Shown piece by piece: positions 6,001-64,000 of a stretch of 64,000 bases of DNA. The notes under the pieces were generated by a model, which saw only the letters and a program-made list of their open reading frames with translations, was not told where the DNA came from and searched no databases. Source of the DNA: Candidatus Omnitrophota bacterium (GTDB lineage Bacteria > Omnitrophota > Gorgyraeia > Zapsychrales > Zapsychraceae). How positions within the stretch are numbered: the first letter of the stretch is position 1; each line of letters opens with the position of its first letter. The position numbers and the translations under genes are program-made. Location of the stretch: the NCBI GenBank assembly GCA_029261055.1, contig JAJDCA010000075.1, positions 77,573 to 141,572 of the forward strand, written 5' to 3'.

Positions 6001-9000
6001 AAAATAATTTTGTCTTAGTAAATATTGGCGGGTTACATTCAGATAAAGGGCAAAAATATTTAATAACAGCTATGCAGACAATTATTAAGAAAATATCTAA
6101 CGTGAAGCTTCTTATTATTGGTGAAGGTCAAGAATATCAATCTTTAGAAAATCAAATAAAAGAGTTGAATCTTCAAGAGAGTATTGTTCTTTATGGAGCA
6201 GTAGATAATCAAGATGTTTCAAAAATTCTTTCTTTTGCAGATATTTTTGTTTTTCCATCAGTGTTTGAAGGGCTTCCTTTAGCCCCGTTAGAAGCCATGG
6301 CTATGGCAAAGCCTGTTGTGGCGAGTCGTGTAGGGGGGATCCCTGAGACTTTAGGTGAAGATGAAAGTGCAGGGTTATTAGTTCCTGCCAAGGATCCGAA
6401 AGCGTTGGCGGAGGCCATTATTCGGTTACATAACGATAAAGAATTATCTAAAAAAATGGGTGAGGCTGGACGAAATATAGTTCTTGAAAAATATACCGCT
6501 AAAACCATGGCCAAAGAATACATGGCCTTGTATGACCGCCTTCTTCTCGAAGCCAAGCCATTTCGTGTTTTGCGTTTGATTATGGATATTTTTCAGCATA
6601 TTTTATCTAGAACTCGAACTTTCTTTTTCCCAAAAAATTTTGATTACCATTTTGTTTTGAATCTAGGTTGGCAGGCCTGGTCTAAATTATTCAGCCTGCC
6701 AAGGTATATTCGTATACCTGTATTTATTTTCATTATTAGTGCTTGGTATATTTTTGGATTTCCTAGTATTGCGTTTGCTGATGGTGTTTTCTTTAGTGAG
6801 ACAATTTTTAGTTTAGACGTATTTGACTGGTTGTCGATTGTTTTGGGTGGGGGAATATTTATTTTTGTTGGGAAGACTTTTGGCATGTTTAATGACGGGG
6901 AGGAGGATAACGTTAAATATATTCCTGGCAAAACACAAGATGACGAGACTAAAAGACATGTCATGAATATTTATGATTCACCACCGAAGGGTGAGGAATA
7001 TCAGCTTTCTGCCAAAGAGGCGTATGACCAGATGGAAGCATTATTTGAAGAATACCAAAGTAGAATTGACAACTGGGAATATATCACCAATGGGGTGTCT
7101 GAAAAAGATTTTGCGCTTATTACGTATGCGGATTCCGTAACAAATAAGAATCAACCTAATGAAAAAGCTCTTAAAAATACATATAAACTTTTTAGAGGGA
7201 TTAAAAAAAGTAATGGGGGAATTAAAAAAACTAATAAGGGGAGATTTCCATTTACGATTTGGCAGCCAATATCCTTATTTCCTTCCAGTACAGATCGTGG
7301 TTATGGTGTGATTGACCATAAGGTTGTGGATCCTCGATGGGGAGACTGGGAGATGGTGGAGAAAATAGTCAAAGAATTCAATCTTAAATTGCAATTAGAC
7401 TATGTCATGAACCATATTTCTGATCAGAGTGAATTATTTACGGAATTTTTAAACGGGAATGAATTGTATAAACATTTCTTTACGTATTACAGGGCGACAT
7501 ATATTCAGGAAGAAATTGATGGGGAAATTGTTTATATGCGTAATGACGGAAGCCGGAGCCGGTTTGTTAATGGCGATGAAGGGGATCGTATTACGATAGA
7601 TATGTATAACGACCCAGAACAAAATATTCTCTTTGATCAATGGGATAACCGCGTGGATCGAAAGGATTTTGATCTCATAACCCGTCCACGAACTTCTGAT
7701 TTATTAACGGAAAAGACGCGGATAACGACAAGAGAAGATGGAACAACAGCAGCTATAAAAGTTATGGTCTGGACCACCTTTAGTCCTCACCAAATAGATT
7801 TAAACTGGCATAACCCTGCTGTTTTGGTTTTTATGACGGATGTATTTTTAAATCTTATAAGCCATGGGACAAAAATTGTCCGTTTAGATGCCGCCCCCTA
7901 TATATGGAAAGAATTGGGGACAAACAGCGCTCATCAAAAGAATGCCCATAAATTGGTAAAACTTTTCCGTTCAATGGCTGAAAAGGTTGCCCCTACTGTC
8001 AAGCTTCTTCCTGAAATTAACGCATCAATTGAAGATGCCAAGAAATATTATGGCGATGAGAGACATCAAGATGAAGGTCATATTTTATATGATTTTGGTT
8101 TCTTTCTCGAAATGGTATCGGCGCTCCAAAAAGGGGACGCCAAAGAACTTAGAAAATATCTTCAAATGCATCCCCATGTAAAGGAATATTATTGGTACGG
8201 TTTGCTTAAAGGGCATGATGGGGGGCCATTGTTAGCGGCTCAGAATATTTTGGATCCAGAACGATACTGGGATGTGATCACTTCATTTAAAGAGCACAGC
8301 GAAGATATGTATGGTAGGGAATTAATTATGTATCGCAAAGTTAAAAATTTAATGGATTCGCTTAAAGAGGATAATAACAGCTTAAGCACACATCTTAAAA
8401 ATATTCTTGGAAAAGAAAAGGTGGATGCCACGATTGATTTTGCTTTAAGCCTTTTAAAAGATAAAAAAGAGCGGCCGTGGGAATTTTATAAGAAGCTTAT
8501 AAGCTCTGAAGAAGTTCCATACGAATTAAATTCGACGGTGTGGAGCCTGTTGTCTTCTTATAGAAAAAAGGGAGAGAATATGTCCACGACAGCAGCTCGA
8601 TATTTTGCTGCATATGATCCAATATTCACCGAAGGCGTTATTCCTGCGATAGAAATTACGGACTTTTTTGGAATGGTGAATATGACTGCAGAGTACAAGG
8701 CGGTGGTTACCCTGGATCAATTTAAAAAAGCAAGTCTTTCCGAAGAGGATTTTAACATACTGAAAGAAATGGAGTGGTTTAAATTAGAAAAAGGAAGTCA
8801 AACAGAAGGATCCTTTAGAAAAGAATTGAAAAATATCAGAAATGATATCGAAAAAATGTTTTCAGATAATATAAAACGTAAATACGTCATCGAGGTTTTA
8901 GAGGCCGCTTTAGAAGAAAGATCATTACGTAGTGTTCACCGTTTTCATATAGAATTATCTGATGCTATAAGAAGAATGAATGATGAATCGCCAAAGGGGC

Positions 9001-12000
9001 GGGTACAGCCATTATTGAGGCTGGCTAATTATAGTAGCGAACATAAAGCTCTTCATCCGGATGGTGAGGAAGCGGTGATTGAATTAGCTAATAAAGAAGT
9101 TTTTGCCTTGGCGCGTAAACATGATGGGGAGGCTATCATAAGTTTACTGAATGTTTCGGGAAAGGCCCTTGACCTGGAAATACCGATTGCACAATTTTTA
9201 GCTAATGACAAAATTAAGTCCGGACCACTATTTACACGTGGCGATGAGTTAAAGATGTCGGATCTTATTCGAGAGGAAGAAAAACATATTTCATTAGATG
9301 GGAATATTGAAGTAATACGTATTCATATGGAACCGTATCAAGCTCTTAAAATTGAGACAACTGTCAAGGAAGATGAAATTGAGGATGATAAGGGGGCGCA
9401 AAGAGTAATAAAACTTTTTCAAGAAGGGTTGGCGCGCGCCGCGGTGGGTATCGGTATTATTTTTACAACCAGTTTGTTCGGGTTAAGCGATATAGCTACT
9501 TTTTTCTCATTTTTTATAGGCACAGTATTTTTAACATGGCCGTTGCTGCACCTCGACGTCCTTCCCGTGGTGGGTCGATCGCAGACTCGGGTTCCCCAAT
9601 CCAATGTAGCAGCAGCTTTTAATGTTGAGCCATTTCAGGGCGAAGATAAAAAATCATCGAAGGAAATTATGGATGTCGCAACAATTGAGTTTGAAGAATC
9701 TATGGATGCGTTGGGTAAAGAAAATAATCTTCGTACTTTGGAAGAGGGCGTAAGCGTGGCGTCCTCTTTGGGAGACGGTGCAAGAATGTCGAGAATACAC
9801 ACAAGAAGAAAAATGCCAACGCCAGCGCAAAGAGATAAATCGTTTTCTTCTGTTAATCTCGCTTTAGCACATATTTTTGAGGAAGATATTTATTTAGATA
9901 AGATTTGGAAAAGTGTATTAATGGTTTTTGGTGTGATTCCAGCACATGAATATGGGCATCGTATTCCAGGAAGCCGATGGTTTGAGGAAGGGCCTTTGAT
10001 GGATAAAATTTTTACAGGCACGATGAATTTGACGCGCGGATCGCCGCTTTCTGTATTCTTTTGGGGACCGATGATGAATTTAGTGGTCGGTCTCGGAATT
10101 GTCCTTTCCGTTGCATTGATCGGATTCGGTAGCATCTTCACTCCTCTTGCCCTCTTCGCCGGCACACTTCATTTAGCTGCTTTTATTTACGAGTTTGTTT
10201 CTCCGCAAGGAGATTTTCAAAAATTATATCAAGGGCTGTCGCACCGTAACGTTACCTCCCGTGGCGGGTCGGTCGTTTCGGTTGTAGTAGCGGCAGCCCT
10301 TAATTATATAAAAAATTTAGCCGCTGTTGCATCTCGTCGTCCTTCCAGAGGTGGGTCGATCGCAGACTCGGGTTCCCCAATCCATGCAGCAGCGGCTAAA
10401 TTAGCTAAATTTATTTTAAAGTTTTTAAAAAGGTCGCCGTTTATAACTACAGCGTTCCGCTTCCCGTGGCGGGTCGGTTTCGCTGTTCTAAGCGGCATCC
10501 TAGCGGCGACCTTTTTATTCTATTTTCCTGACGTAACATTTGACTCGAGCAGTCACTGGGAATTCCTCCTCTTTAGTTACGCGGCTCTGAGCAATTCTAA
10601 AGATTCTCAAAATGATGAAACGCAAATAACACAAGGAGGTATACCCGTGAAGGTTGGTGACTTTATGTCGGTTGATCTTTTGTTTGGTAAAGAAGCAAAA
10701 AATATAGTGTTCATGAGCATGGAAAACGTCCGAGAGAGAAAAAGTACTGTTGTGATATTAAAGAATAGATCGACGGGTAAAAGATTAAAAGTAAAGTTTG
10801 TAGCAATAAAATCGGAGGGTACAGAAGGTCTTTTAGTCAAATTTCGAAATCCGCAACGATCGCAAGAAGACTCATCCGTTTATAAAATTTATAAGGATAA
10901 GGATAAAAAAAATAAAATAGTGTTGGCGGATAAAAATGGAATACACATCAGAAATTTAAAGAATTTAAGAGGACGTATAAAACTTAACCTTAGCGAGGTT
11001 GCTAAACCCCAGAGGAGTTCTTTGCTTAGAAATTTCTTTTCTGAAACGGAACAAGCATCTCATGCGCTTGCTGTGGAGGGGGACAGGGTAATTAGACCAT
11101 ATTTAGAGAAAATAGGATTTTCAGAGGAAGAAATTATTGAGCTCGACCCTACAGAATATTTTTTAAGAATTGTTAAGAAATATAGAAAGAAGTTTGGAGA
11201 AGATCAAGAAGGTGTTATGGATGAAGAGTTTGTTATTGCAGAAAGGGTCAACGGAAAATTCCAATGGCGCCTTAGAGGGGGTGAAGAGGCCTTTAGGGAA
11301 ATGGCACAAGTAAATTTACACTTACTAAAGGAAGAAATCGCTTATCTTCTTATGCAGATTAAAGTTCATGAAGCGGGGGAAGATGAAGAAGAAGGCATGG
11401 ATAATCAAATAAAAACTATTGTATGGGTAAGAAATAATATACGGCCTGAGAAGGACATTCCGACGGCTCTTGATATTCCGCAAAGTCTCAACCTTAATCG
11501 CACAGCTAAGGCGGCCCTGGTAGAGTACCTAAAAATTTTAAATAAATCAAGAAGAGTGAATCCTGTCGGGGAACGGATTAAAGACGCAAAAGGTACTTTG
11601 GCCATTTTGGAAGATAAATTGAGTGGGTTGGAACGAAATAATCCCAAAAAGCTTTTGAAGGATGTCAGGCGTATGAAAATATTGGCAAGCAAACTCATTA
11701 ATTCCATGCGGTTAAGAAGGGACATAGGCCCTGGATATTCTTATACATTAAGAACGCTTAATAAACGCGTTACACGGTTAGCCGTCGACACATTAGACGC
11801 CATATTAATAGCGGTTGATACCTCTGAAGCCGATAAAAAAACTACACGTAAACTATTATTAACGGCTAAAAGATTTAAAGACATTATTGAATATAGTATT
11901 GCCTACGACGACATTATTAATAATCGGGAAATTATTGATACAGTTAAAGGATACCGGATACCTTATATTTCATTGAATTACAAGGGAAGCGTGATCAGAT

Positions 12001-15000
12001 TATTAGTAAGAGTTATCAATGTGTTGATATTTGGTATCAATTTTGTTGTTGGTTATATTTGGGGCATGTTCCCTCGTATTAGAATATCGCTGAATGTAAT
12101 ATTGGCATCCAGTAAAATTCTCATTAACAAAGGGAATGTCATTTATGGAGGTTTATATGAAGATGTTTCGGAGGGAGGTTCACCCAAAGAATATTTTGAA
12201 GCCGTGGGGCTGGGGAGTTATGTAGGTATTCAGTATTTACGTAATTCTGTATTGGAAGGAGAAGAATTTGGATTTCATGCCTTTACCATAGTCCGTAAAG
12301 TGAGTAGTCGATTTTTTACGTTAACGTGGCCTTTTCTTGCCTTGCTCTTTGCTTCTTCGACCCAAAGTTTTTGGGAAAAAATAATATCTCAAGATTTTTG
12401 GGGAAAAATAGAGCTCACGGATTTAGCGATATCGTATGGCATGTCTATAGGATTCTTTTGGCTGACATTAATACGAAAAAATTTAAAGTATCAATTCTTA
12501 AAAGGGAGATTTAGGAGAATTATTCGAAATAAATGGGTGTGGCTTCATGGATTAAAAAATAGTCGTATTGAGGCTTTGCAGGCATTGAGGGCGGCTCGAG
12601 AGAGAGAAATGTCTGCCCCACAACCTAATGTCGATATGATTATTGTTGTTGTTGGCGACAGTAAGGATAACGAGAAGCAGGTCGCTTTTGAGAATATGTT
12701 TGCCGGTTCTGAAGGTACTATTTGGCGAAATGATGTCCCGGTATTGATCGTAAGAAATAATCCTGGTAAAGGAAGTGGAAATGCACTTTTAAAGATGGCA
12801 GAACTTTTTGAAAATATTCAATCTCCTGCACTACAGGTTATAGATGCCATGCAAGATGATCCTGATATAACAATGGTTAATAAGGGGGTTCAAGTGAACG
12901 CCCTTGATCATTTAACGGGTAAAAATATTGAAGATTTAAGTATTATTGTAGCTACCAATGGACACGATGTGGATCCAAGCAAAAAAGAGTTATTATTCCC
13001 CGGGCTGGAGCAAAAGCTCGCCACACTGGAATATCAACTATCTAATGGTTATCTGGGAGCGCAATATGATAAAGATAATGCGAAAAATGGGCTGATTTTT
13101 CTTGATGGTGAGGGTGTTTATTTAGGGCCTGTAGAGCGAAGAGGAGATATTACATTGCTTTCAGCCATGGTCAGTTTAAAGAAAGTTCGCAAAGGCTTAG
13201 CCTTTTTTCATAGTAATTCTGAGGACGATGAAGAAGGCATTAAAAATATTTATGATAAATTTGCATTTGATTTTGTTCGGGAAAATCATCCACTCCGATT
13301 TGAGTGGCATGAGTTAAAAAAAGAACAAGTTCCAGTTGTTACCGGTGTGAAGCTTGTGAGTTTTAAATTTTTGTCGCTGCTCAATGATTTGCAGGCCCAC
13401 TTAACACAGGTTGAAAATGGTGAGAAGGATTATGAAGACATTTTAGCCACTATTAAAGATGCGGATGTAAGGAAAAAACTCACGAAATACAGAAAAAAGA
13501 TTGCCGGCATAAGGAATTTACCGATACGGATTTCCGACATTATAACGCCTGTCTTGCGCATAAGTACCGGGGCAGATAAGAAGCTTATCAAGTACCTTGA
13601 GGTTTATTACGCCGGAATGAAGAAAAGTTTACGGAATTTAAAATATAAGAAAAGCCCAACGGAAAATGAAGATATCGTTACTTTTTATGCTGAATTGTTT
13701 AAGTTTTATCGGGAATGGTTTAAAGGTAGAAGGAGTCAACCTTTTAGCTTTTATTCTCCACAGGTTACGCATGACGAGGCATTTTATTTTAAGAGGTTCA
13801 AAGATGAATCTAAATACAAAGATGATTTAGATGAATTTAACTCCATAGTGGAGGAAGCTGAAAATAATAAAAAATCAAGGGGAGCAGTGAAAAAGGCCGC
13901 CGGTTTCTTATTAGCCGCTATTGGAATTGCATGGGCTATACTACCGGCCAAAACTTTCGGCGATGATCTTTTAAGTCCTATCGGTCAGGCGTTGGCAGAG
14001 ACCTCTTCCTTTTGGCAATGGGTGACGATGGCGATAGGTGTTGGCGTATTTGGTTTTTTCTTGAAAGAATCTAGTATTCTGGTCAGCCAAGAAAATAAAT
14101 TTTGGGAAGAAATGAACCGTCGGGATCATGACGAGACAGTTCGTGAAAGAAAGATTAAGTGGCGGTTTCATAACAGAGGGGATGAAATTCTCGACACCGT
14201 TAAAATGGTACATGAAACAACCATTCAGCGGGCTGTTCGGAGTCCCGGCTACATTGAAACATTGTCGATGACTTTATTCTGGAGCCGTCTGCTCGTAGGG
14301 TTCAATAAATTTCGGAATGACCGGGTCACCGGACGGGTCAGGGCGATTGATTATCTCGTCAAGAAAATACAGGAGAACTGGTATCATTTGCCTTTTGCCG
14401 GGGTTATGGCCGCATTAGCCGGGCCGATTGCGCATGCTAATGATATGTTTTCAGGGCAAATTGTTTCCGGGAAAAAGGTGGGGCAAGCACTTCTTGATGT
14501 GTCCATAGGAGATTTAAACGATGAGAAGGGTATTTTTTCCACTGCGATAACGGATAAAGCCGGCACGATGCACTTGCCGCCAAACGAGAAGGCGTATGTT
14601 CTATTGGCCTCTAAACAATTTCGTATTAAGAATCCGGACGGAACATTCCAACAGCCTTCGATTTTAAAAACGCCCAAAGAAAATTTGGAATTTATGCTGA
14701 AACAATTACAGTCAGAATCACCGGTGGGAGTTATTACGATGAAAGATGTCATTATTGCTATCCCGAGGGATGAACGTAATGACGAGCTTGCTTTAACCAT
14801 TGAGCGTCAGGGGGCTACCGTGTTGCGTTCAGACAAGTATTTAAATTCTGTGTCTGTGCAGGTTGTCCTGCGTGCGAAAGCAGTGCCTGAAGAGCAACGA
14901 ATCACGGCAGCCATGGGCGTATTTACGCTGGATGAGAATGGGTTGGCTGGAATTTTGGCGCAGGGTCAGGACGGAGTTCTTTCGGCAAGAGTTGTTCCGG

Positions 15001-18000
15001 AAAGTTTTAGAAATTCTATGTTGATTGAAAAGGACGGGTTTCGTAAGGCTGCCTTCACACGATCGGAGATACTAACTTTAGCTAATTTTGATATTTTCAG
15101 CCCTGATGAAGATAGTGATGCCGCCGCTAAAGAGTATTCTCGCAGCGATAAACTATTGGCTAACTCATGGATGAAAGAAGTGAAGGAGGCCAGAAAGAAA
15201 GATTTTAGTAAATATGAAAATACGTATGATCGAAAGAGACATGTGTATCAAGTTGCGCATGACTTTAAAATGGATGCACCTTCCTTTATGAACAAAACAC
15301 GGACCGCTATCAAAATATTAAACGATGGGACAACGTTAGCATCTTTGGGATTTATAACGACAAGAACTTGGGATCAGGAATTAACCGAACAGGATTTAGC
15401 TCCCCGTGTCGAAGGGGACAAAGGCAAGGTATTTATCCTTGGGATTATTAAGGATTATTCTGGGTTACAGCTTAACGAGAAACCCATTCCTGGTGTCAGA
15501 ATTAATCCACAAACTGGTGACGCGGTGGTGCATATTGTTTCGTTTTACGACTCAGGGCGTGTGACTATTAGTAGGGTGGTGTTTAAATTGCGCATAGGAC
15601 CTCTTAATCAGCAATTAAGTCTTGAAAAAGGCAATCCGTCAGAGGGGAAGGTCCGGTATGATTTGGCCGTGGTGTATGACCTGTTGGGGTATTACCGGGA
15701 AGCCATAGATCAAATCAAGAAAGGATTGAAAGTTCGTGGCGCTGAAAAAAATATTTATAAAAAATTGAGTGTATTGAAGATTAATACTAAAGGTTTGCGT
15801 GTGCTGGACGGCACAAAACATTGGTCCGGTGTTAAATCTGCCATAAGAGGTTTTAAAAAAGTGGCGAAAGCAATAAAAGACTTTAAAGAAAAGAATGGGC
15901 ATGATTTAGATTTGTCCCTTTATCCGAAGGACATGGTTCGACGATTATATGAATTTATGGGAGACGCGATTTACAGGAACGATCCATACAAGGCGGCACG
16001 GTTTTATCGGGAGGCCTTGAAAATGGCCCCGCATAATCTTGGCTTGTACAAAAAATATTATGACCAAATCTTAAAAGATTCTTTGGATAAGTATTTTGTC
16101 CTTTTGGAAGATTTCATGAAAAGAAACAAAAGAGATCCCGATGGTAAGGAAAAGTTAGACATGGTGTTGTTTCAGATTGGCATCAGGGTGGAAAATTTTA
16201 AGGGGTGGTTTCACCTTCAGGACAATTTAAGTGAGGGGGAATTAGAAAGGCTGGGCCACCGATTAATTCTCAAAACCGCTTTGGAGGACGAGCATCCGGA
16301 TTATCGGACATGGTGGTATTTATATATTGAACAATTATTGAAAGACCTTAATGAGATGAGTCAGGGTGATTTGGTCTCACGGTATGAGTCTTTCGGTATA
16401 ACCGATACTCTTGCACATAATGTGATTGTTTACCGGGAAAAATTAGATCAGGGACAAAAAATGCGCCTGTATCAACTTTCCGATATCAAACAGTGGCATA
16501 CAGGGGAAAATAAGGGCCTGATTGTAAATTTATTGTATCCAAAGACAGAATTCATTGAGCAATTATTTCATTTTAAACGCGGTAAATTAAATGAACTGGC
16601 TAATGAGTCTATTCCTTCGGAAACAACGAAAGGAAGTAATGAGCAAGCCGGCATTAAATCTTTCAGTACAGAAATAGAAGCAGGTCTGGTGGCCAAACAT
16701 GACTACGAATATCAAAGCAAAATTTTTTCTTTGGCGTGGGCGCACCGTGATCGGGCCGTTGAGCTTTTGGGTTATGGCGACAGCGTTGGGGCTGAACGAG
16801 AATATAATACCGCCATCAATCTGTTTAAAGGCAATCGGGTTTATTTTGAAGGGGTCTTTCCTATGGATGCGCAAACGGCTTTGGGACATATTTTTAATGA
16901 GATGTTCTGGATTTTTTCAAAAGAAAAATATAAAAAATTTGCCATAGATAGTTTTCAAGTCGTGATTGATAGAGAGTTATTTGATATTGATTATAGAAAG
17001 GGTTATCAAGCGGATAAAAAACTTCCGGGTTTTCAGGAAGAAAGAGTTCGAGATTTCGGAGAGCTGGGGCAATTATTTTCGATGGGAGATCGGTTTTATG
17101 CTTCTTATGCCAGGGAACAGTTGAAACGTTTAATGGACCCACAACAATACGATGCTTTAATTCAAGATGTAGAAAAATATATGATCTTACTTAAGAGGGC
17201 GCAAGAGCCAGAACAAAGCACACAAGATAATAAAGGAAATGAAAAGAAAAATTGGGATGATTTACGGGTGACGATTGAGAATATTTTTAAAGTCGCAGAA
17301 AAAAATCTACTGGATAAGGGCGCGGTGGGGTTTAAAATTCAAAAAGCGTTTAGAAAGGCAGAGTTAATAGAAGGCGTAGATGAGGAAAGTTTTTCAATCA
17401 AAGATTATTTAGGAAGCTTCACTTCAAAGGAAGATGCGACCAGTGCAGCAGAGACGTTAAATACTGAAAACAATGTCACCCAATATAATCCGTACGTCGC
17501 CGACTTCCTCATTTGGTTAGCCCAGGCATGGCAAGAGCATTGGGCGTCGCGAAAGGATTCTTCATCAGACGATTCCTCTAACGGTCGGACTATCTTGTCG
17601 ATCATTCTTTGGTTTGCCTTTCTTCCAACTCTCTTATTCACATGGGCCATGCAGGTAGCCGTTTCCTCTGGCGCTAATTTCTTTGGGCCAATCGGGAATG
17701 CTGTTGCCGAGCCGTCGTCTATAGGGACGGTAGGGACGTGGGTGGGGGCATTTTTAGGGATGATGGGGATTTTGGGGCGTATTTATATGACGGGTCAAAA
17801 TACGAATGCTCGTACAGAGGAAGAGAAAGAAATGCAAAGCCATTTTGATCCAGGGGCTGGGTTGGGGTTTTTAAAAAGTATGTTAGGGACAAAATTATTA
17901 TCCGTGAATCAAGCTTCTGATTCCGGTCAGGAAGCAGCTAAAGAAGAATCGGTTGAGCATAAAAGGTTTGCGCTTTTAATGTCGAGGCTTAGCGTGCATA

Positions 18001-21000
18001 TGTTGAAATTTATGGGCAAGGATTTAAAAGACAATACATCCGGCCTTTTTAGAGCCAGGGAGTTTATCGCTAAAGAGTTGCGTTTAGTTTGGCACCATTT
18101 CCCTTTTTCCGGTGTTATTGCAGTTTTGTCTCAGGAATTTGAAAAATTGAGAAATATGTATAGTGGCGAAGTTATGGTCGGCAGGGAAATGGGCGAAGGA
18201 CCTACTTTTGATGTTATTCCGGGGGATTTTGAAAAGAAAAAAGGTTTTATGGACGACAATGTATTGGGCACTCTTATTTCTATGGGCGTGACAGATGAAT
18301 ATGGTGTCAGGCATGTGCCTCCGAATATTGATGCGGAGGTGATTTTGTTGGGAGAAAAATTTAGGCATGCAAAAATTTCCATCAACAATACCCCTGCAGA
18401 AAATTTGGCTATTATGAAGCGATACATAAATAAAGACTACAAGGATTTACGCATAGCGGTTCCATTAGGCAAGAAATATGACAGGCTGGCGAAGGCCATT
18501 CGTCAAACAGGGGCTCAGGTCATACGTCTTGATGATGAATGGACCGGTCCTATATTTGCCTTGAGTGATTACGATCGTATCCCCGGAGAAAAACGCTTGG
18601 ATGCCATTATGGGGGTTAGGCCATTAAATCAGGCGGTGTTGTCAGCTATTCAAGTGATAACGATGGGCGGCCGGATACGTGCCAGAGTCGTGCCTAAAAA
18701 TATTTCAGCCAGACGCGTGGCGCATGAAATAAGTGACGACGATGTATTTTCTTATGAAGAAGTGATCCTGTTAGCTAAATTTAATATATTCAGACCGCAA
18801 AGATTTTATAGAAGAGGAACTATAACGGATGATGACGCTCGCGCATGGTTGCAAAGAATTGAAAAGGCAATAATTAATAGGGATGTGTCATCAAGGATGG
18901 GAAGAATTATCGGGAATAAAAGATATGCTTATCAAGTCGCGCATGACTTTCAGATGACATTGAGAGAGTTTGTGAGAAAAACTGAGATGGCGCTTATGCA
19001 AATAGGGAAAAAAGAAACATTCCAAACCCTTGGTTTTAAGGGGGCGGAAGACTGGGATAAAGAATGGACCGAAGAAGATTTGGCGCCGCAGCATAAAGAA
19101 GATCATGGCAAAGTATTTATCGTCGGGATAATCAAAAATTTTAATTGGATGTATGCAGATATAGCAGATAAAACCCCTGTATTGGGCGTCCGCATTGATC
19201 ACAATACTGGGGTTGCCAAAATTAACGTCATTGTAGCCGGAGCTTCAGGGAAAATTGATATTGTCGAGACAACATACAAAACCGTCATCAGCACTGAGCG
19301 TGAGAAATTGGAAAAAATTAAAAGGGTAGGTAATAAAAAAGTAGAAGCAGCCATAGCGTTAAGCATGGGATTAGCCGAAGCTGGACATTTTGCCTTGGCT
19401 TTGAACAATCTGAAAGAAGCCTTGGAATGGGATGGAACAAGCCCCACACAAAAAAATGATTTAGAGCTTATGATATACAATATTCAAGGATTAAAGGCAC
19501 TCACAGAAACCCCAAAGTTAGAGGATATAGAAACAGCGGTTATTCCTCAATTTAAAAAATCCCAGGAGAAAGCGGGGGCAAACGATACGTATCGTCTTGG
19601 CCATATGCTCAGGAGAGTGTATGAATACTTAGGAGATGCGTATAAAAATCAAAAGAAATATTCTACGGCCATTAAGTATTATCATAAGGCTTTAAATCAA
19701 AATCATCAGGATAGTTTTCTTTATAATAAATTGTTTAAACAGGTGATGGAGAAAACCATCGCACGGTATAGAAGACAAATACAGCAAAGGATTAAGATAG
19801 CAGGAAGTTACGAGGGACTAAAATCCTTTAAAGTAAGGATAGTATTTAAAACGCGTTTTAAATCAAGGCATCTTAAGCATAAAGAAGATCCGAATAGAAT
19901 GTTACGTCAATTTTTACTGCGGGCGATTTTGAAAGAAGAGAAAAAATATTATCATACACTTTTAATACGTTATTGGGATCAGCTGCAACGGGACATTAAT
20001 CAACTTTCGGGAGATGCTTTAGTACGTCGTTACGGGGAATTGGGTATGGATGCAAATAAGGTTAGGTTTTTGACGGCATACAAGAAAGGGGAGTGGTATC
20101 ACTGGCTAATATTTTGGAAGAAGAATCGGATGAGAGCCATAGGGCTTTATCAGATAGATAAGGTCAAGAGATGGGATTATGGTTTTATTACGCGGTTAAT
20201 GCTTCCGGGTAAAGAGGTTATTGAAAAGTTATTTAATATCAGAGGTGGGCTGGCCAATGAATCAGAAAGAGAAGATATCCCTTCAGTGGAGGATCCGGTT
20301 GCTATGTTAGGCATGCGTCTTAAATTTTCCAGAGAAGAGCAACGGGAAGGTATTGTGAGAATGGATATAGGAAGGAATTATCAAAGGGAGGCTTTTTCCT
20401 TGGCGATGACGTTCCGGGATATAGGGGCCGAGTTATTTAGTGATGGACAGAAAAAAGGGGCTGAAAAAAATTATCGTCAGGCAACGGAGATACTTGAAAA
20501 AAATAGAGAACATTTTGAAGCGATATTTACTTTGACCGCTCAATTAAGACTGGCTGAAATCTATGAAGAAATGGAACAATTTTTTCCGGATCAAGGATAT
20601 TTAGACAGAGCGATCCTGGCCTATGAAATTATGACGGATAAAGAAAAATTTTATGAGGCGTATAAATATTTTAATGGGAAAGAGCGGAACCGACGAGATT
20701 TTGAAGGGATTATAGAATTTTATGGAAAAGAATTAATCAGGCGGGCCCAAGAACGGTTAAATCAATTACAGCCCTCCGAAGAGAAATCAAAAAAGAAGGA
20801 TAAGAAAGATGAAATACTTCGTACGATATCTTTATTGGGGCAGGCTCATATTCAGGCGGATCATTTAACAGAAGCAGAATTAACGAAAGCAAATACAAAG
20901 ATAGAATCTCTTGTTCAAAAAGGACGTGAATCGGAGCATATACAGACTACGGTTATTATTACCAGAGAAAATGAACATAGTAAATTTGTGAGGGCTGGCC

Positions 21001-24000
21001 TGAATTTTTTAAGGATTATTCAAGATGAGGATCTGTGGAAGGATGAAGGTATTCATATTTTTAGCGACGCCATCATCAAAGCTTATCAATTAGATGAAAA
21101 TGAAATTATTCTTTTTAATAGGTTGGTTAATATTAAAGCAGAAGTGAACGAGAAGGATAATTTGGACAGTGCTGAAGCTCATCAACACAAATCCCCCATA
21201 CCCAAAGTCATCTTAATGGGGCTGTTTGGTGTGCCGGGGGGGATTCTTACGTTTTTATTCGCTTCGCCATGGGTGGGGCCAGTTCTTTTGGTTTTGGCGG
21301 CGGTGTTCGGAATAGTAATACTGGCGGATATTATTGCATTTGGATGGATGATGTGGCGCGGGGCTGGGATAAGAAAAAGTACATTTTTTGAAAAAGTAGG
21401 ATTGGCTCAGCGAAGAGGAATGCTCCCCGCTGATTTATCCATAGACAAAATAAAAATTTCTAAGGACGGACGTTTAGGTTTATGGCAAAGCGCAGCATAT
21501 ATAGACGGCATTATCTATGTGCGGAGGGAGGCGGCGTATTCGCTTAATGCATTAGTTCGTCTGCTTCGGCATGAGATATATCATATGAATCAGAATGGTC
21601 TTGATCCACCTGTCCCTGTTGCTAACGTCCTGCTGCGAACTCCTTATCTTGCTGTGTATTATCTTTTTTCTTTCCTTTATTATTTATACCACGAACTATC
21701 CGCTGAGCTTTCCGAAAGGGCACCGGAACACCGCAGCCGTCATACAGAAAAAACACGGGAGATTTTTAAGAAAATAAATTTCCCCCACCTCAAGACTCAA
21801 CAGAAAAAAGATATTAGAAGGCTTATTAATGATTTGACCGAGTTTGGCCTTGACCAAGAAATCATTCAAGATATTGCGGATGTCTTGAGTATTGTTGATA
21901 AAAAATATACGTATACACCCGTTCGGCGTACTTTTGATGAAGCACAAAAAGTAGTTCAAGAATGGCATAAGAGACACGTTAATTTTGATGAAGTTCCTGA
22001 TGAGGCTGTTTTGGTTGGTGTGCTCCTTTATGATATCGGAAGAATTTTTATTCCCCACAAGATACTTTACAAAAAAGGATTACTTACACCGAAAGAAAAA
22101 GAAATCTTTAATAAAAAATTACAGTTAGGGACAAAATTTCTCGGCCTTATTCCGGGAATGAAAGACGTAACGGAAATTATTTTGTATCATTCGAAAGAAT
22201 ATTTTGGTGGAAGCGAATATTCCCAGGGCTTAGAAGGAAAATCTGCTCCCCTTGGCGCACGCATTGCCGCGGTGTTTGATGCTGTCGATGCTATGACATC
22301 AAACCTACCTTATCGTAAAAAGATATCCCGAGAAGAAGCGGTCATTGAGTTAGATAAACATAAAGAGTATCAGTTTGATTCGGATGTGGTGGATGCCTTT
22401 CTATCTGTTTATTCAGCAAACCGTCAGCCGTCAGGTTTACAACAAACAGAAAAAAATGTACGTATGCAACAAGATAGGGGTGACCTAAACACAGATGCAT
22501 TGTCCAGAATATTTAGAAGTATTTTGGAGAAAGTTGGAGAGCTCAAAGAAAAATTATACACTGACAAATTGACAGGCCTTAAGAATGTTGAATTTTATGA
22601 AGAAAATATTGCTTCAATTATTCGCAGTGCTCATGAGGCAAAACAACCACTTGCCGTGATCATGCTGGATATTGATCATTTTGGAAATGTTAATAATCAT
22701 TATGGACATGATGCAGGTGATCTTGTTTTAAAGAACGCTACCCACATTATTTCCCATGCCCTGCGCGATGATGATGATATTTTTAAAGTTATACGCAAAG
22801 GCGGCGAAGAAATTTATATTATTCTTCCGGGAGTAACGGAAGAAAATGCCATAAAAATTGCCGAAAGGATAAAAGAATTTCTGTCTTGGATTAGTCGAGA
22901 AGATGGCGAACGACTTACAGATCGTACTGCCGTTGATAGCGAAGGTCGCAGATTAACGCTTACCGTCAGCCAAGGTATTGAGGTATATACCCCTGATTCT
23001 TCTAAAGAATTTCTTTCGGATGATGATGTACAGCAAATAAAAACCGACTTGGGAAAACACTCTGATGCCGCATTGTATATCATCAAGGAAAATGGACGGA
23101 ATGGGTATAGGGTGTATCAGCCAGGGGATGAGGTAAAGGCTGAGGAACAATCTTCCGCTGGGAATAAGGGGACTAGTGCTTTGGCTGAAGAACCTCAGAA
23201 TTTGAGGGATCATATAAAAGAAAAGCATGCGGATCTTAGTGAACATGGAATTGTGGCTTTCGAGACGGATAAAGTTGAGAACGAAGTATCTTTTAATGCG
23301 GATGGTGCGGAATTGGTAAAGCGTCTTGAAGTAGAGAAGGGTATTACATTTAAGGAACAGGTGATTAAACTTAAAGATAAAAAAGGAAATAAGAATGGAA
23401 AAATACTTAAGGTGACTATTCCAGTTAATGCGCACCTTTCAGAGAATGCGCTTATGGCTCTTTTGCAAACGGCTCTGGCCGTGGCAGACCTACGCGATCT
23501 TCCTGATGACAAACCGTATTATCTTATTCCCGCCGCTTACATCCTTTCCCCAGATAATCAAGACAGTTCTTCTTCCCATCTCGCTGGTGTATATCCTAAT
23601 GCACGCTTGGTTTTTCTTTCTAATGAAATTCTTTACGGGGCATCTCAAAATAACGACGGGCCACCCGCATTTGTTACTCTGTTAAACGCACAATTTACAG
23701 GAACGCTTATGATTCGTAAAGGTGGAAAGAAGGTTAAGGTTGAGCCAGAAGAAATTGGTTTGGGTGATTTCTTTTTACGTCTTATTATCCGGCATGAGTT
23801 TAGACATATTGCCTATCCGAATCTTAGCGAAGAAGATTTGATGGCCTTTGATGCTTTTGACTTAATTACTTTTGCTCGGAGTATTAATGTGAAGGATAAA
23901 GAAATTGTCAAGAAAGTTGCCAGTGCACTTTTAGCGGAGAAAGTTATTAGTCAGGATTTTTACAATGCGATTGTAGGTTCAAATATATTACTAATTTACA

Positions 24001-27000
24001 AAAATGATAAATATCAGAAGCTTATTAAACATACGGTTTCAAAAAAAGATTTTGTTGCCCTTGATGGTGTAAAGATACAGGAACGCCTAGGAGGAACAGG
24101 ATCTCTGTTTATTGGTTATCCACGAGAATGGATACGATTAGTTAAATATCCTTTTGCTCCAATTAATTTTGATGTGGAATATGGATTTGTTACAAAAGTG
24201 CGCCTCCTTGATAGTTTGGGGTATGTATTTAAGGAAGAAATATTATTACGGAAAGAATCGGCAAATGGAAGCTTCTTGGGGACAATAGCTTCCCGAATAA
24301 ATAAAGATGAGTTCTTTAAATTTGATAAAGTGTGGATTAGAGGTAAAGTTTTAAGTGCTATGGGCATTTTAAGAGTTGGAAGAAAGGATCCTTGGATGTA
24401 TTTAGGTGCTAATTATGATGGTTATCCCGTAGACTTTTATGTTGAACAGGGGATGGTAACTAGAATCCATATTTTTGATGAGGAGGGAAAGCATGTAATA
24501 AAAAAATTGGAAGCAGCACGCGTATATGACTCCTACGGCCAGTTCATTAATGTCATATTTGGCGATATAACTCCTGCTGCGTTGGCAAAATTAGATGGAG
24601 TCATTATCAAAGATGTGCCTCTTCAAGAAAATGGCGACCTTATTTTCGGAACTATCAACTGGACTAGTTTTGAAAATTATCCAGGGGGTAAGGCAGATAT
24701 CCGGATTGTTAAAGGTAAGGTTGTTTTTGCTAAAATCGTGGAAGACGGTTGTTGTCAACGGGTGAACACTCGTGCTGGAGAAGGTTTTGGACAGACCCGA
24801 AGGAAAATATTATTAAAAGGCGAGCTGGCTCTACAGGAGCACATTGAGGTTTCTTTGAAGTCGGCAGGTATTTTAGATGCGCAGGCTGGGGATATTGCAC
24901 AAGTACTGGTGCGGCTTAAAGAAAATTCATTAGCCATACTCGTTAAGGATGGTCTACTTTCCAAAGAAGACGCCGATGCCTTAAGAGCATCTCGGTATCA
25001 AGCATCGGATGTTCAGGCCAATCTCGCGCATAGCTTACTTTTGCAGGCGTCGACCTATCAAAACTATGGCCTCTCACGTGGTCTGATTGATTTTCTTCTT
25101 CAGCCTATGTGGGCCTTATTGGACATAAATGCTCTTGACTATGATCTTAAGAAGAAGCTTGAAGCGTTCATACCTGAAAATAATCAAGATATAGGGACCC
25201 TTCTTTCCGAGGATCAAAATACTCTGGCAAAGAAATTAATTGAGTATATGGAGCTCTTCACACATATTCCGGTAAAGGAACCAAGAAATAAGATTCTTCC
25301 CCAGTCCAGGATAGACACTCTGCTCGCGCCGTTATTGGATCAGATGGATATTAATCAGATAGATAATAGAATTTATCAAGAAATCCGTACATATGAAGGT
25401 CGGGGATATTCGCTTGTCATGGACGGGCGGCTTAGATCATCTTCTAAAGAGCCTCTGAATGCGCAACGACTTGGGCATAAATTTCAGGAGCAAATACGCT
25501 TGTTTAAAGATCATGGCCTTCATGAGAAATTGATTGCATTTTTGTTTCAAACCCATCTTTTTCCGTGGGAGACCATCGCACGTTTTCTGCGGACTTACAG
25601 GCTCTTTAAAGATGTCACCAGAATTTGGGAAGCCTTGAGTTCTGATAATGTTGAAGCTCATATTAGAGAAGGGCTTAAAGATAGAGATGGTCAGCCAGGG
25701 ACTTTAGATAGAGAAAAACATCTCAAGAAATATGACCCAAATAAAACACCCGTTGCAGATTTAAATTCGCTTTTGGCAGATTTGAAATTCAGGAAAAATA
25801 TTTTAGACCTACTTCAGCAGGGCCCCGAATCCGTGGAATTTTCTTATGAGGTGGTTTATACGGATAATCAGATGCCCGTGGTGCAGTTTTATAAAAATAA
25901 CCTTCCGGATGATTTTAAGAATTTTGATTTTAATGAAATTACACAATTTATTTTTACAACACGTGCGCAAGGTCATGAATTATTTTTTGAGGTGACCGAA
26001 GTTATGGATGCTGGTAAATGGAAGGCTAAATTACGGAATGTTGGTCAGGGATCCATAGATTTACCCAACAAAGGCAAGCTGACCATAGTACCAGTTGCGG
26101 ATGTGAATACAGATCTTGAATCAAAAGCGGTTGATCAAATTATAGAAGATCAGAAAAATATTGATAAAGGAGATAAGCGCCCTGATAAATTTAGTCGACT
26201 TTTTGGATTGGCTCCACTCACACAGGACTCAAGGCCGACAACGGTTGAACATATTATGGATGAAAAGATTCCCTATCGTCTTAAACCGGGATCTATAGAT
26301 GAATATACAGGGGATCAGAGTCAGGAAACAGCCGTTCATTTAGCTTCGAATAATACAGAGGTAGTTTACATCGACGGGCCTGTCGGCACCGGGAAGACCA
26401 CGGTTATTGTAGAAATTATCCGTCAGGCTGTTTTGCAGGGCAAAAATGTCCTTCTGGTATCTCAAATGCATCGAGCTGTGGATAATGCTTTGTTAAAACT
26501 TTTAGAAGCCGATCCGGAAATTCCGGTTCTTCGCCTCGGAAAAGATCCATCACGTTTTGAGGAGGAATTCAAAAAGAAATTTTTAGATCAAGTTTGGCCG
26601 GGAGTTGTTGAAAAAGGACGAAACAATTCCGGAAGAGGAGATCCTCAAAGAGTGAAAAGAGTCCTGGATACGTTTGCTGAGAAACAAAAATCAGGAAAAG
26701 GATGGGTTATTGCTGCAAGCAGTACTGGTGTTGCGCTGGACCATATGTTTCTTGGTCGTGGTGTTGATGAAAAAGTTGTTGATTTGTTTGTTATGGATGA
26801 AGGTAGTAAGGAGAGAACGACAGGCGGGTTTGTTCCTATGCGTTTTGTAAAGGACGATGGTAAAATAGTAGTTTTTGGTGATATTAAGCAGCTTCCTCCA
26901 CATCCTTTGAGTAACGCACAAGTCAAATATCTTAAAGCACAGGGCATATCAAAAAAAGATATGGATGTCTTTAATATGAGTATTCTGGAATGGTTATTGA

Positions 27001-30000
27001 CACAACGTCCGCCTAAAGATAGTCATGGGCAGGTGTATGGGGATAGGGTTATGCTTTCTACGAATTGGCGCTCGCATCCATTTTTGGCCTCATTAATTTC
27101 TGATTGGAGCTACGATGGGGAGCTGATACCTAACGGATATGTAGATTTTGATAGAGATACATTCCGGATTATCAATATTTCTGATAAAGGCGTTGTAGCT
27201 GGAGCTATGCCTGAAGATGGTTATGAAGAAGCGGTGGGAACCTCTTTTAAAAATACTACTTCCGCGAATGAAGTTACGAAGGTTGTAAGACAACTCAAGG
27301 GAAAGGGCGTGAAGGCGCGGGGTATTACCAACATTACAGGTTATGCCGCACAGGTTGCATTGCTTAAAGAAATATTAGAAGGTATTGAGACTTCATCGAT
27401 TGATAATTTTCAGGGTCGGGAAAGTGATGCAACCATCATTGACCCTGTCCGGAGTAACCGTTTTAATGATATAGGGTTTATTAGCGACCTTAAGAGATTG
27501 TTGGTCGCTATGTCACGAGCTAATAATTATTTGGTCTTTGTTGGGGATATGAACACGATGTTAGGTGAACTTGATAAGCAGAAGCGCCCACATGATAAAA
27601 ATCGACTTAAAGAAATTGAAGATGCTAAAAGTCTCATGCAAATCATGTTTAATGATTATCTGGATAAATCCAGTATTTTCTTTGACGGGCCTCCACTTAT
27701 AGTTACTTGGTCTCCCCATGTTCAAAGTCTTTCGATGGATATGCCTTCAGCCAATCTCAAGCTGGCACGGATTGCCGATGGAATGGAAGCTTCTGTAAGA
27801 CCGTGGGTGCGATGGCTGGGTAAAATGCTTAAATTTTTCTTAAAATATATATTGGTTATCTTAACCCATGAGCTTGCACATTATTTGGGGGCGATGTTGT
27901 GGAAGCAGAAACCACGTGCTACTTGGGAGGAATTGAGTACAGTTGGTCGTACGCATGACGTTGACGGTGCCCCGCGTTTATTCGGCGCTATTGCCAATCT
28001 TATCATTGGTTTGAGCCTTGTGAAAATAGCCTTACTTTTTGGTTTTACTTTCCTTCCCTACGCAATTCTTGCGGGACTGGCTGCATTCATTGCCGCTTTT
28101 TATCTTTTCGCTGCGGTGATTGATATCATGCATCCACGCGGAGATTTTGCGCAATATGTGCAAGATCTGAGGGAACCGGTTAAAGATTTTTTTCATAACC
28201 TCAACTCCAGATTTGTTAAAACATTAGCTGTTTTTATTTTTATTATGGGGATTATCCACATTCTGCAGCCATGGGGTCTTGGGGTGCACATTGCTAATAT
28301 TGGTTTTGGGGTGTGGGGGGTTGGAAAATTAAACAATGCTAGTGTGGGTGTGAATATTGACCCAAATGGTCAGCGCATGGGGCGTCAGGCTTTTCCTGGG
28401 TTGATGGTGTCGATATCCGTTATGGACGCCGGGGCTGAGATGCGTGTCGAGGATAATCAGGGGAATGAAGTTGTCAGTTATAGTGGTTCGATTAAGACGA
28501 TCATCGACGTGTTACCGTATTTACAGTCGCGGGGTGTAAGCGCGATATACCTATACGGCGGTATTTATACCCCAAGTGAAATTTCGAAAGTTCTGCATCC
28601 AAAACGACGTTTTGAAGAAGAGCTGGTTAAGACAGAGAGAAAAGGCACCTACGTGGTCACAAACTATCCTGATAACAATACGAAGCAAATAGGGAATAAA
28701 AAATTTGCGGATGTTAATGGAATGCCTTTTTCTATGATGGGTATGACTGAAGATATTGCGGATCCGGAGAGTCTTTTAAAAATTAATCCTCAGCTTTCGG
28801 ATGGCAATGCCAGGGAAGATATTTTTGAATTGATACAAATAGCTAAGAAGTTAGGGTTAGAGGTTTATGCTGATTTAATTCCGTGGCTTGCGCCGGACGC
28901 GATCACGGCAGACAATTATCATTTGTTTTTGCATAAAGAGGTGGGGAATGATGAAGAGGAGACAAGGAGGATTAATGAAGAATTTAGTAATCTTCCTAAT
29001 GAAGAAGCCGAAGATAAATATCTTTTTAAATTTCTTAAATCTAAAAATGAAAGTTACGAATTTTATTTTGCCAAATGGATTCCCGAAAAAAATAATGAAA
29101 GAATTGTTCTTTTCCCTCGAGCAGATATTAATCTTCCTAGTGCCGATCAGGTGATATTAAATATGTGGCTGCCGGAAGTGCAGGCGTATTTAACCAACGC
29201 GGCCGTGCAGTGGTCCAAGGCCGGCGTGACAGGTTTACGGGTTGATCTGGCGGCTAAATTATTAAATAATAAATTAAAACGCCCAGAATATTCGAATCTT
29301 GTTACAGCGGAACAGAAGGAAAAAATTGAGAAATTTTACAAAAAAAGTTGGCAAGAATTTATGGAGTCTGACGATCCTGAAGATGAACCTTTATATCGCG
29401 TTATTCAAGATACGAAAAAAAAGATTGGAAATGAAAAACAAATGGCCTGGCTGATGGAGGCCTATGAACGAGGATATGATAATGCGGATATGTATACACG
29501 GTTATTAGATATGGATCCTTCTGTCAAAATGTATTTCGAATGGGTTAAGTTGGCTTATGAGGATGATGATGCGGGAGAAATGTCCAAGAAAATTTATAAT
29601 ACTATCTTTAAAAAGGAATACCGTGGACGGGTTGTGGTTTATGGGGCAAATTTTGATGAAGAGTCTCTTGTGAATATGATGGGTTCCCGGGAAGGATTAT
29701 TGATGATTTTGATTACTTTGGCTTATTTAGACGTCGGAGTCATGATTGACGTACGTGAGTGGATGGGGCATTCTGGGCAGATGATTAAAATCTCAGGTCC
29801 GAATCATCCATTTTTGAATGCGGAAGAATTGGAAGTTCGTTTAGAACCTAAGGGGTATGAAAAGGCATTAAGGCAAGGCCCGGTTGATCAGCTGATTAGA
29901 GACTTTCTTGAAGCCGTTCCTCAAGGGGATGTATCTGTAATTAGCGTAAAAAGTTCGAATAAGTCAGACAAGGATCACAAAAATAAACTTCTTAAGATTT

Positions 30001-61652: not shown

Positions 61653-61794
61653 GAAAAAATAGACGCTATATTTAACCCGTTATTTCTAAACGAGTAATAA
61701 AACAAATATATTCTATGAAAAAAAAGACTATGTCGATAATTTTTGATAATTATTTTGTGTTGTTTGTAATATTGACACAAAGTGGCGTACTTAT

Positions 61795-61811
61795 GTCAGT
61801 GCAACTGACAA
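61795..61811. terminator. Short hairpin TGTCAG-tgcaa-CTGACA between convergent giant gene and mutL (possible bidirectional terminator)
   Basis: 6-bp perfect stem with a 5-nt loop in the 175-nt convergent intergenic region. There is no clear U-tract. Confidence 0.25.
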
Positions 61812-61827
61812 TGTAAAGGTGGTCGTA

Positions 61828-63681: not shown

Positions 63682-63690
63682 AATTTATTA

Positions 63691-63960
63691 AAGAAGCAGA
63701 GAAGTAAGAAACAAGATGCAGAGATTTAAAATGAGGGCCAGAGGTGTAAGAAGTAAAGAATAAAGAAAGAGGAATTAAAAAAATAGAGACAATTTTTAGT
63801 AAAACAGTATTAAACTTTTTCTTTTTTTTACGTCTCTACTTCTCACATTTTTGTTTCTTACATCTCTGCTTCTTACATCTTTGCTTCCTGCTTCTCTACT
63901 ACAGGCATCTTTACTTCTTGCTTCTAACCTCTCTGCTTCTTGATTCTTTGCGCCTTTGCT
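63691..63960. repeat. Imperfect inverted repeat (63691-63715 AAGAAGCAGAGAAGTAAGAAACAAG versus reverse complement of 63850-63874) followed by CT-rich tandem motifs (cttcttacatct / ctgcttct) upstream of mutL
   Basis: 23 of 25 positions match between the arms, with a spacer of about 135 nt. The motif AGAAGCAGAGA recurs at least three times in reverse complement across 63850-63960. Confidence 0.5.
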
Positions 63961-64000
63961 TCTATTTAACTGTTTCTTTCAGCTTCCCCAACACATTCAA

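Follow-up and report, generated by a model that had tools for sequence, protein, structure and literature searches.

A stretch of 64,000 nucleotides from a Candidatus Omnitrophota bacterium (assembly GCA_029261055.1, contig JAJDCA010000075.1, forward-strand positions 77,573 to 141,572; hereafter the window) carries a giant open reading frame (ORF) in which a degenerate HD-GYP-fold domain is followed by a GGDEF domain. This module lies at window positions 21855-23102 on the plus strand and corresponds to residues ~7236-7651 of the giant ORF. With moderate confidence, it can be read as a cytoplasmic, membrane-proximal sensing or feedback node for the messenger cyclic di-GMP (c-di-GMP) in an Archaeovorin-like giant membrane protein of the Omnitrophota. 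An earlier sequence-only reading had placed a sensor or receptor pair, rather than an enzyme pair, at 21940-23125 (residues ~7264-7659, with codons beginning at 21939). The region is the same, but the fold starts about 28 residues earlier, near nucleotide 21855; therefore, the first lost histidine was missed. The receptor interpretation is supported for the HD-GYP half, which has lost its metal ligands and has a parallel in DvhD, and is unsettled for the GGDEF half, in which the ligands and GGEE are intact. That reading did not register that the module sits within a giant ORF of the Omnitrophota, at least 20,500 codons long.

Both domains are real, with scores far above chance. A Pfam scan, which had been proposed as a check, found HD_5 (PF13487) at residues 7287-7413 with an E-value of 5.5e-22 and 78.7 bits (cut-off 27.2), covering profile positions 42-170 of 170, and GGDEF (PF00990) at residues 7470-7651 with an E-value of 1.1e-28 and 100.4 bits (cut-off 23.8). 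The NCBIfam model TIGR00254 also recognized the GGDEF domain with 107.7 bits. Among PDB sequences, the HD-GYP half matched PA4781 (4r8z, E 7e-13), PmGH (4mcw), and DvhD (9rbz), and the second half matched 48 GGDEF chains, including 3ign, PleD, and WspR. All the motifs quoted earlier (LLYDIGR, ILYHSKE, GGSEYSQG, LTGL, DIDHFGNVNNHYGH, RDDD, and GGEEI) are present in the translation.

For AlphaFold, trimmed homologue domains were aligned and each domain was modelled separately (from alignment A4, and from A5 for GGDEF). Two combined alignments (A2 and A3) put HD-GYP fragments over the GGDEF region and were discarded. The HD-GYP model has a predicted local distance difference test score (pLDDT) of 81.7, with the loop at residues 7351-7359 (the GYP loop) below 50, and Foldseek matched it to 4r8z (E 1e-7, template-modelling scores 0.65/0.68), 9rbz, and 4mcw. 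The stalk-GGDEF model reached a pLDDT of 90.2, and its matches were WspR, SiaD, PleD, and DosC, with target-normalised template-modelling scores of up to 0.87 (WspR and DosC). The best folds for this model include the coiled-coil or stalk constructs GCN4-WspR 3i5c and DgcB 6ttr. Positions 22425-22556 (+) between the two domains hold a 22-residue linker, which is probably flexible, and a 22-residue helix (residues 7448-7469; model residues 6-27) that is predicted with a pLDDT of ~96 to run straight into the GGDEF domain.

The HD-GYP-fold domain (21855-22424 on the plus strand, residues 7236-7425) is defined by Pfam, PDB sequence matches, alignments, AlphaFold, and Foldseek. When compared with 17-19 canonical HD-GYP domains, its metal-ligand positions align to P7257, Y7294, D7295, K7323, H7347, K7349, and D7377, so that four of the five histidines are lost and both aspartates are kept. 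The first histidine is replaced by Pro7257 (nucleotides 21918-21920), the HD dyad by Y7294-D7295 (22029-22034), and the third histidine by Lys7323 (22116-22118). HHE is replaced by Y-H-S-K-E (22185-22199), where the HHE position reads H7347-S-K7349-E with one residue inserted. WDG has become FGG, in which the aspartate of HHExxDG is glycine, GYP has become E7356-Y-S7358 (22215-22223), and the arginine of pYR is Leu7386. The whole HHExxDGxxGYP signature thus reads H-S-K-E-Y-F-G-G-S-E-Y-S. It had been claimed that every catalytic signature is substituted. This holds for four of the five histidines and for the G and P of GYP, but the aspartate of HD, one histidine of the HH pair, and the tyrosine of GYP are kept. 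The metal-ligand alignment called for at that time added the loss of the third histidine (Lys7323) to the list.

As aligned, the changes are concentrated on metal-binding and signature positions. At least 15 of 17 relatives agree in 35 alignment columns. The query keeps 25 of these, and the ten changed columns are H to P, H to Y, K to R, H to K, H to K, D to G, G to E, P to S, I to A, and R to L. In a census of 160 HD-GYP domains from the 150 best representative proteins, any one of the five histidines occurs in 142-159 of the domains, and a single domain lacks three or more. The G of GYP is invariant in this census (160/160) and is Glu here. The domain is more degenerate than 159 of the 160 nearest-relative domains. 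Judged by its residues, it cannot assemble a two- or three-metal centre. It should not be a phosphodiesterase, because the metal-centre histidines required for c-di-GMP hydrolysis are lost.

The closest functional parallel, which surfaced here through the fold search, is DvhD of Desulfovibrio vulgaris. Its structures (PDB 9rbz/9rc0) became public in 2026. DvhD has SQ for HD and MN for HH, binds c-di-GMP without metal, and does not hydrolyze it; it is an inside-out receptor that was inactive with every metal tested (PMC13090378). Its canonical-site contacts are L577, K582, Y621 (the tyrosine of GYP), M646, R650, Y652, R653, and E668 (PMC13090378). In a pairwise phmmer alignment, six of these eight contacts are identical in the query (L7312, K7317, Y7357, M7382, Y7388, and R7389), and P567 of the bridging site corresponds to P7302. 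Both proteins share an HD-GYP fold in which the HD dyad and HH pair are replaced, on the cytoplasmic side of a membrane protein. In contrast, DvhD keeps GYP where the query has EYS. DvhD is also a dCache-TM-PAS-HD-GYP protein of ordinary size (TM, transmembrane) that regulates a Lap-type protease, whereas the query HD-GYP domain precedes a GGDEF domain in a protein of at least 20,500 residues. By analogy, the DvhD parallel supports a receptor role for the HD-GYP domain and is not proof of it.

The GGDEF domain (22557-23102 on the plus strand, residues 7470-7651) is defined by Pfam, NCBIfam, AlphaFold, Foldseek, and a column-by-column comparison with 114 homologous domains. PleD numbering was used, and residue roles were taken from PMC12943098 and PMC7288161. 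The residues D327, N335, D344, R366, G368, G369, E370, E371, K442, and R446 are kept. The Mg ligands D327/E370 are D7507/E7553, the guanine ligands N335/D344 are N7515/D7524, and the phosphate ligands K442/R446 are K7646/R7650. The GGEEI motif lies at 22800-22814, and only its final Phe is changed, to Ile. Two substitutions were not found in any of the 114 homologues. Lys332 is replaced by Gly7512 within the DIDHF stretch (22683-22685), a position that is K in 111 and R in 2 of the homologues, and Asp336 is replaced by Asn7516, which turns ND into NN (N7515-N7516), where 110 homologues have D and 2 have E. K332 has been described as a transition-state stabilizer (PMC12943098). Further changes are NRR to NVE (Arg300/Arg301 to V7480/E7481), Arg313 to Ser, Tyr367 to Lys, and Phe372 to Ile. 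The sequence-only reading had correctly listed LTGL, DIDHF, GG-E-E, NN for ND, and I for F, but Gly7512, the NVE change, and a three-residue insertion escaped it.

This insertion (D-I-F/K, 22776-22787) comes after RxxD, and no more than 1-2 of 119 homologues have it. Two more insertions of 6 and ~12 residues are also present. The inhibitory site (I-site) proposed at RDDD (22764-22775) aligns with RxxD, as R359/D362 are kept in R7539-D-D-D7542 and R390 is kept as R7573. However, this RxxD lies 8 rather than 5 residues before GG, with the spacing modelled as an eight-residue helix-strand loop. In fold, D327, N335, D344, R366, GGEE, K442, R446, RxxD, and R390, the domain resembles PleD and WspR. 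It differs from them at Lys332, Asp336, R300/R301, R313, Phe372, and the RxxD spacing, and the module has no receiver domain, unlike PleD and WspR. Judging from its residues, the domain should retain GTP binding and probably also c-di-GMP binding. Catalytic activity appears doubtful because Lys332 and Asp336 are replaced by residues found in none of the 114 homologues. It could still be a cyclase, because the Mg2+, guanine, and phosphate ligands and GGEE are intact. A Hypr (cGAMP synthase) identity was rejected, since this type needs Ser at PleD Asp344, where the query keeps Asp7524.

The module is placed close to a membrane. A TM hairpin of two helices (21207-21338 on the plus strand, residues 7020-7063; hydropathy peaks 2.15 and 2.95) with a short SPWVGP loop lies ~170 residues upstream of the HD-GYP domain. 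It is followed by an HEIYH (HExxH) motif at 21570-21584 on the plus strand (residues 7141-7145), in a segment that matches no Pfam family even at E-values up to 5. The module had been described as lying directly after a TM bundle and an HExxH module; the TM pair and the motif are both present, but the bundle is a two-helix hairpin. The HExxH segment at residue 7141 looks like DUF4157, but Pfam (E up to 5), NCBIfam, and PDB profiles gave no support for this identity. An aromatic hydrophobic helix after HEIYH (21612-21710, +) has a best 19-residue hydropathy of 1.19, which is below TM-like values, and has basic flanks on both sides. The 30 residues that follow the second TM helix carry a net charge of +5, compared with 0 before the first helix, and a basic stretch (+6) lies between the aromatic helix and the HD-GYP domain. 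Downstream, a superfamily 1 (SF1) helicase (AAA_11/AAA_12, residues ~8722-9134) lies between the module and the next TM cluster at approximately residue 9306. The 2,200-residue segment with the module is thus inferred to be cytoplasmic, because of the positive-inside rule (basic flanks) and the need for GTP and ATP within the segment.

No close relative of the module was found in a 5.8-billion-protein search, where matches had at most 44% identity over one domain. Species-representative genomes also gave no close relative and only one distant Sumerlaeales GGDEF, and no relative was found on JGI metagenome contigs. The best relatives are ordinary proteins of 430-770 residues with 28-44% identity per domain. 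None of the protein collections searched contains the giant protein itself; homologues encoded within other very long genes may therefore have gone undetected. An exhaustive HMMER search of 1.84 billion representatives had its top matches in the adjacent helicase block rather than in the module. The top representatives P0122 (3,777 residues), P0125 (1,625 residues), and P0231 (6,247 residues) match the downstream beta-repeat and helicase block, and the P0122 and P0125 sequences lack the c-di-GMP module.

GGDEF-HD-GYP hybrids (P0001-P0011, with PAS/GAF-GGDEF-HD-GYP architectures, one annotated as coming from a Candidatus Omnitrophota) combine the same two Pfam families in one polypeptide. Their order is GGDEF and then HD-GYP, opposite to that of the query, and this order is found in 131 of the 150 best representatives. 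Their HD, HHE, and GYP motifs are intact, with partial loss in P0008, and they carry sensor domains. Only three clusters among these 150 have the query's rare order in a single aligned stretch. These are the REC-HD-GYP-GGDEF proteins P0155 (annotated as a diguanylate cyclase of a Lachnospiraceae bacterium), P0187, and P0227. They show the reverse of the query, with a canonical HD-GYP domain and an altered GGDEF signature (GGDEY in P0155 and AGDEF in P0227).

Under the preferred reading of a c-di-GMP sensing or feedback node, the inactive HD-GYP domain would work in a DvhD-like manner, by metal-free binding of c-di-GMP or a close relative. Ligand binding would then change the geometry of the dimer or stalk. 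The GGDEF domain would bind GTP and c-di-GMP and would be at best a weak cyclase. Together, the two domains may report or locally buffer the messenger level, and the messenger state could be passed to the HExxH module, to the TM hairpin, or to the SF1 helicase block, which shares the cytoplasmic segment. Several points weigh against this reading. The invariant Gly of the GYP loop is Glu, in a loop of low model confidence. R650 of DvhD, which binds the phosphodiester, is Leu7386, and E668 is Lys7405. The DvhD contacts that are kept are residues conserved across the family, so that the demands of the fold, rather than ligand binding, may explain why they persist. The lack of a close homologue leaves no way to demonstrate purifying selection, and domain decay does occur in this protein, where a second helicase paralogue lacks Walker A. 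Neither the ORF nor the sequence after it, in which mutL and mutS come next, yielded PilZ or any other c-di-GMP effector. Finally, GGEE is unaltered, as are all metal and base ligands, which is compatible with a competent cyclase.

The last point is the core of a tentative alternative, in which the GGDEF domain is an active, product-inhibited diguanylate cyclase that supplies distant effectors, and the HD-GYP domain is an inert dimerization scaffold or spacer that binds no nucleotide. The intact GGEE, Mg and guanine ligands, K442/R446, and RxxD/R390 triad agree with this alternative, as do the confident fold and a stalk helix of the kind that dimerizes cyclases, and West-Roberts et al. associate GGDEF domains in giant proteins with PilZ genes nearby. 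However, there is no PilZ gene downstream here, the proposed transition-state stabilizer Lys332 is Gly, Asp336 is the Asn absent from all 114 homologues, and NRR, Tyr367, and Phe372 are also changed.

It is also conceivable, and on the whole unlikely, that the module is a decaying relic, namely an HD-GYP/GGDEF protein captured by a fast-evolving giant gene and now present as folded filler without a nucleotide-related function. Invariant positions are substituted in both domains, no close homologue was found in the collections searched, and the helicase-block relatives P0122 and P0125 have no module. Another duplicated domain of the same ORF, the helicase, has visibly decayed with loss of Walker A and of its Pfam signal, and the domains of giant proteins are highly divergent according to the literature. 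Against general decay, the changes are targeted to His and GYP. Of the 28 other conserved HD-GYP columns, 22 survive, as do all the direct GGDEF ligands; the profiles score 79-108 bits, and model confidence is high.

A further reading, which is quite improbable, is a c-di-GMP switch in cis. Here, the GGDEF domain would make or hold the messenger and the dead HD-GYP domain would read it. The change in stalk or dimer geometry would be relayed through the TM hairpin, in an inside-out manner of the LapD/DvhD type, or to the flanking HExxH modules. Functions that are exposed at the surface or concern processing would thus be gated in this membrane-embedded protein of at least 20,500 residues, whose host would be a predatory or epibiotic nanobacterium.

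An ordinary bifunctional pair that makes and breaks c-di-GMP is very hard to reconcile with the sequence, because four of the five histidine ligands and the G and P of GYP are gone and DvhD, with comparable loss, is inactive with every metal tested, although both Pfam families score well above threshold and the nearest relatives are hybrids with intact motifs. An artefact, in which the giant ORF and hence the embedding of the module are mis-assembled or chimeric, is scarcely credible. In its favour, assembly is difficult for very long repetitive genes, and this ORF has internal duplications. Against it, 61.5 kb are stop-free in one frame against 881-2011 stops in the others, codon-position GC content is uniform, the internal repeats (23-60% identical at the protein level) are too diverged to mislead an assembler, and the 3' 12 kb is identical in a second assembly, in which the gene is called with 17,098 residues.

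The giant host has been placed against the Omnitrophota proteins of West-Roberts et al. (bioRxiv 10.1101/2023.11.21.568195), who reported GGDEF domains in many 'Archaeovorin' giant proteins, pilZ genes downstream of most of them, and high divergence of the domains of giant proteins. By its composition, the giant ORF fits this category. It shares the phylum, the size class, and many TM segments, and has the matching combination of glycosyltransferase, methyltransferase, glycoside hydrolase, fructose-bisphosphatase, TPR, and GGDEF. SecA_DEAD, HEAT, and NUDIX were not found in the 20,500 residues within the window (SecA at E<=0.01). pilZ is absent downstream of the giant gene, where mutL is found instead. 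A divergent SecA_DEAD helicase domain and a downstream pilZ gene are common but not universal in Archaeovorins. HD-GYP goes unmentioned in this preprint and in a 2026 survey that covers 916 long proteins of the Omnitrophota.

Precedents exist for degenerate HD-GYP receptors, for I-site GGDEF domains, for both domain orders, and for GGDEF domains in giant Omnitrophota proteins. The new element is the combination of a very degenerate HD-GYP domain with an unseen substitution pattern, the rare order, a GGDEF domain with unique Lys332-to-Gly and Asp336-to-Asn changes, and a membrane protein of at least 20,500 residues. For c-di-GMP biology alone, this adds little that is new in kind and is a solid but modest find. 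If the sensing reading is true, the domain would be a second, independently evolved metal-free HD-GYP receptor with different substitutions (YD / H-S-K-E / EYS). Giant Omnitrophota proteins, with their many enzymatic modules, are almost wholly uncharacterized. The module, at ~430 residues, is small enough to excise and carries a clear prediction, that c-di-GMP is bound and not hydrolyzed. It is therefore one of the few practical experimental entry points into a giant Omnitrophota protein.

The giant ORF extends over window positions 3-61652 on the plus strand with an open 5' end and a stop at 61650-61652, and has at least 20,549 codons within the window from nucleotide 3 to the stop. Its listed form, 150-61652, has 20,500 codons, with nucleotide 150 as the first possible start. 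The gene may start upstream of the window, because the frame is free of stops from nucleotide 3 to nucleotide 150. Over the whole window, this frame has 58 stops, all outside the ORF, compared with the 881-2011 in each of the other five frames. GC content by codon position is uniform along the ORF. The same gene was called at 17,098 residues, ended by the contig edge, in an independent Logan assembly, whose contig (SRR15505515_378, 56,255 bp) is 100% identical to window positions 51828-64000, that is, the 3' 12 kb. The ORF is also present on the 151,379-bp NCBI contig. The next gene is the convergent mutL (window 61828-63681, minus strand), and mutS follows mutL on the Logan contig (locus L001, 63-2648). 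The named best matches of MutS have 64-73% identity and are all from Candidatus Omnitrophota/Omnitrophica.

Pfam domains in the giant ORF include a GT4 glycosyltransferase, an alpha-amylase, two FBPase_glpX-like blocks, TPR, an SF1 helicase, two methyltransferases, a nucleotidyltransferase, a helix-turn-helix domain, and ThiS. Hydropathy analysis indicated ~60 hydrophobic segments. Ancient internal duplications with 23-60% protein identity are extensive in the ORF, and the giant gene therefore grew partly through copying its own blocks. The duplicated blocks, in residues, are 4604-5599 with 5841-6822; 7658-8160 with 12548-12826 and 12968-13368; 8608-8950 with 13499-13805; 14058-14250 with 17795-17984; 16932-17111 with 17502-17665; and 18035-18099 with 19234-19285. 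The second copy of the SF1 helicase block has no GxGKT Walker A and no Pfam match, which indicates domain decay after duplication. Unlike many other blocks, the HD-GYP/GGDEF module is present in a single copy.

The segment directly after the GGDEF domain ('PYYLIPAAYI...RLIIRHEFRH', window 23343-24095, residues ~7750-7990) is present in three copies in the ORF and matched no known family. Its paralogues near residues 12650-12830 and 12990-13240 read RHGFRR and RQGFKE, and only the first copy has HExxH. Beta-rich repeats with the pattern 'YP.AP..FDV..G.V..VR.L' follow at window ~24000-26300 (residues ~7960-8700), before a CC pair and the SF1 helicase. The giant ORF has ten HExxH motifs, at residues 3266, 7141, 7882, 9240, 12206, 14761, 15090, 15729, 16510, and 20157, whereas 2000 composition-preserving shuffles averaged 0.66 and gave at most 4. 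Most of them come after a hydrophobic helix, and several lie 60-140 residues past a TM hairpin. None of the ten matched a peptidase family in Pfam, and a role as self-processing sites of a polyprotein is speculation. The modules at window 9849-10349 and 27747-28289 (residues ~3234-3400 and ~9200-9380) are paralogous with 30% identity. They have a common pattern of HExxH inside a hydrophobic helix, then G[PA]xxNL, and then PxGDF in later TM segments. This pattern resembles that of site-2 (M50) intramembrane proteases, an identity for which Pfam (E up to 5), NCBIfam, and PDB profiles gave no support.

Cysteine is rare in the giant ORF, with only 10 in 20,500 residues (0.05%). These form five tight pairs, three CxxC and two CC, at residues 64/67, 8201-8202, 13404-13405, 16453/16456, and 18942/18945, where residue i begins at nucleotide 150+3(i-1). 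TGT and TGC codons number 10 in the frame of the ORF compared with 502 and 972 in the two other frames. A suspected ThiS-like domain ending in HMHGG near residue 15,300 had no Pfam support, and a weaker ThiS-like match of 19.7 bits lies near residues 16233-16288. A ThiS-family beta-grasp domain is located near the C-terminus (window ~59830-60050, residues ~19905-19977; 25.4 bits, cut-off 22.5), directly after an HTH_3 domain, and ends in ...AGIAGG. An internal ubiquitin-like domain with such a GG end hints at cleavage or conjugation chemistry.

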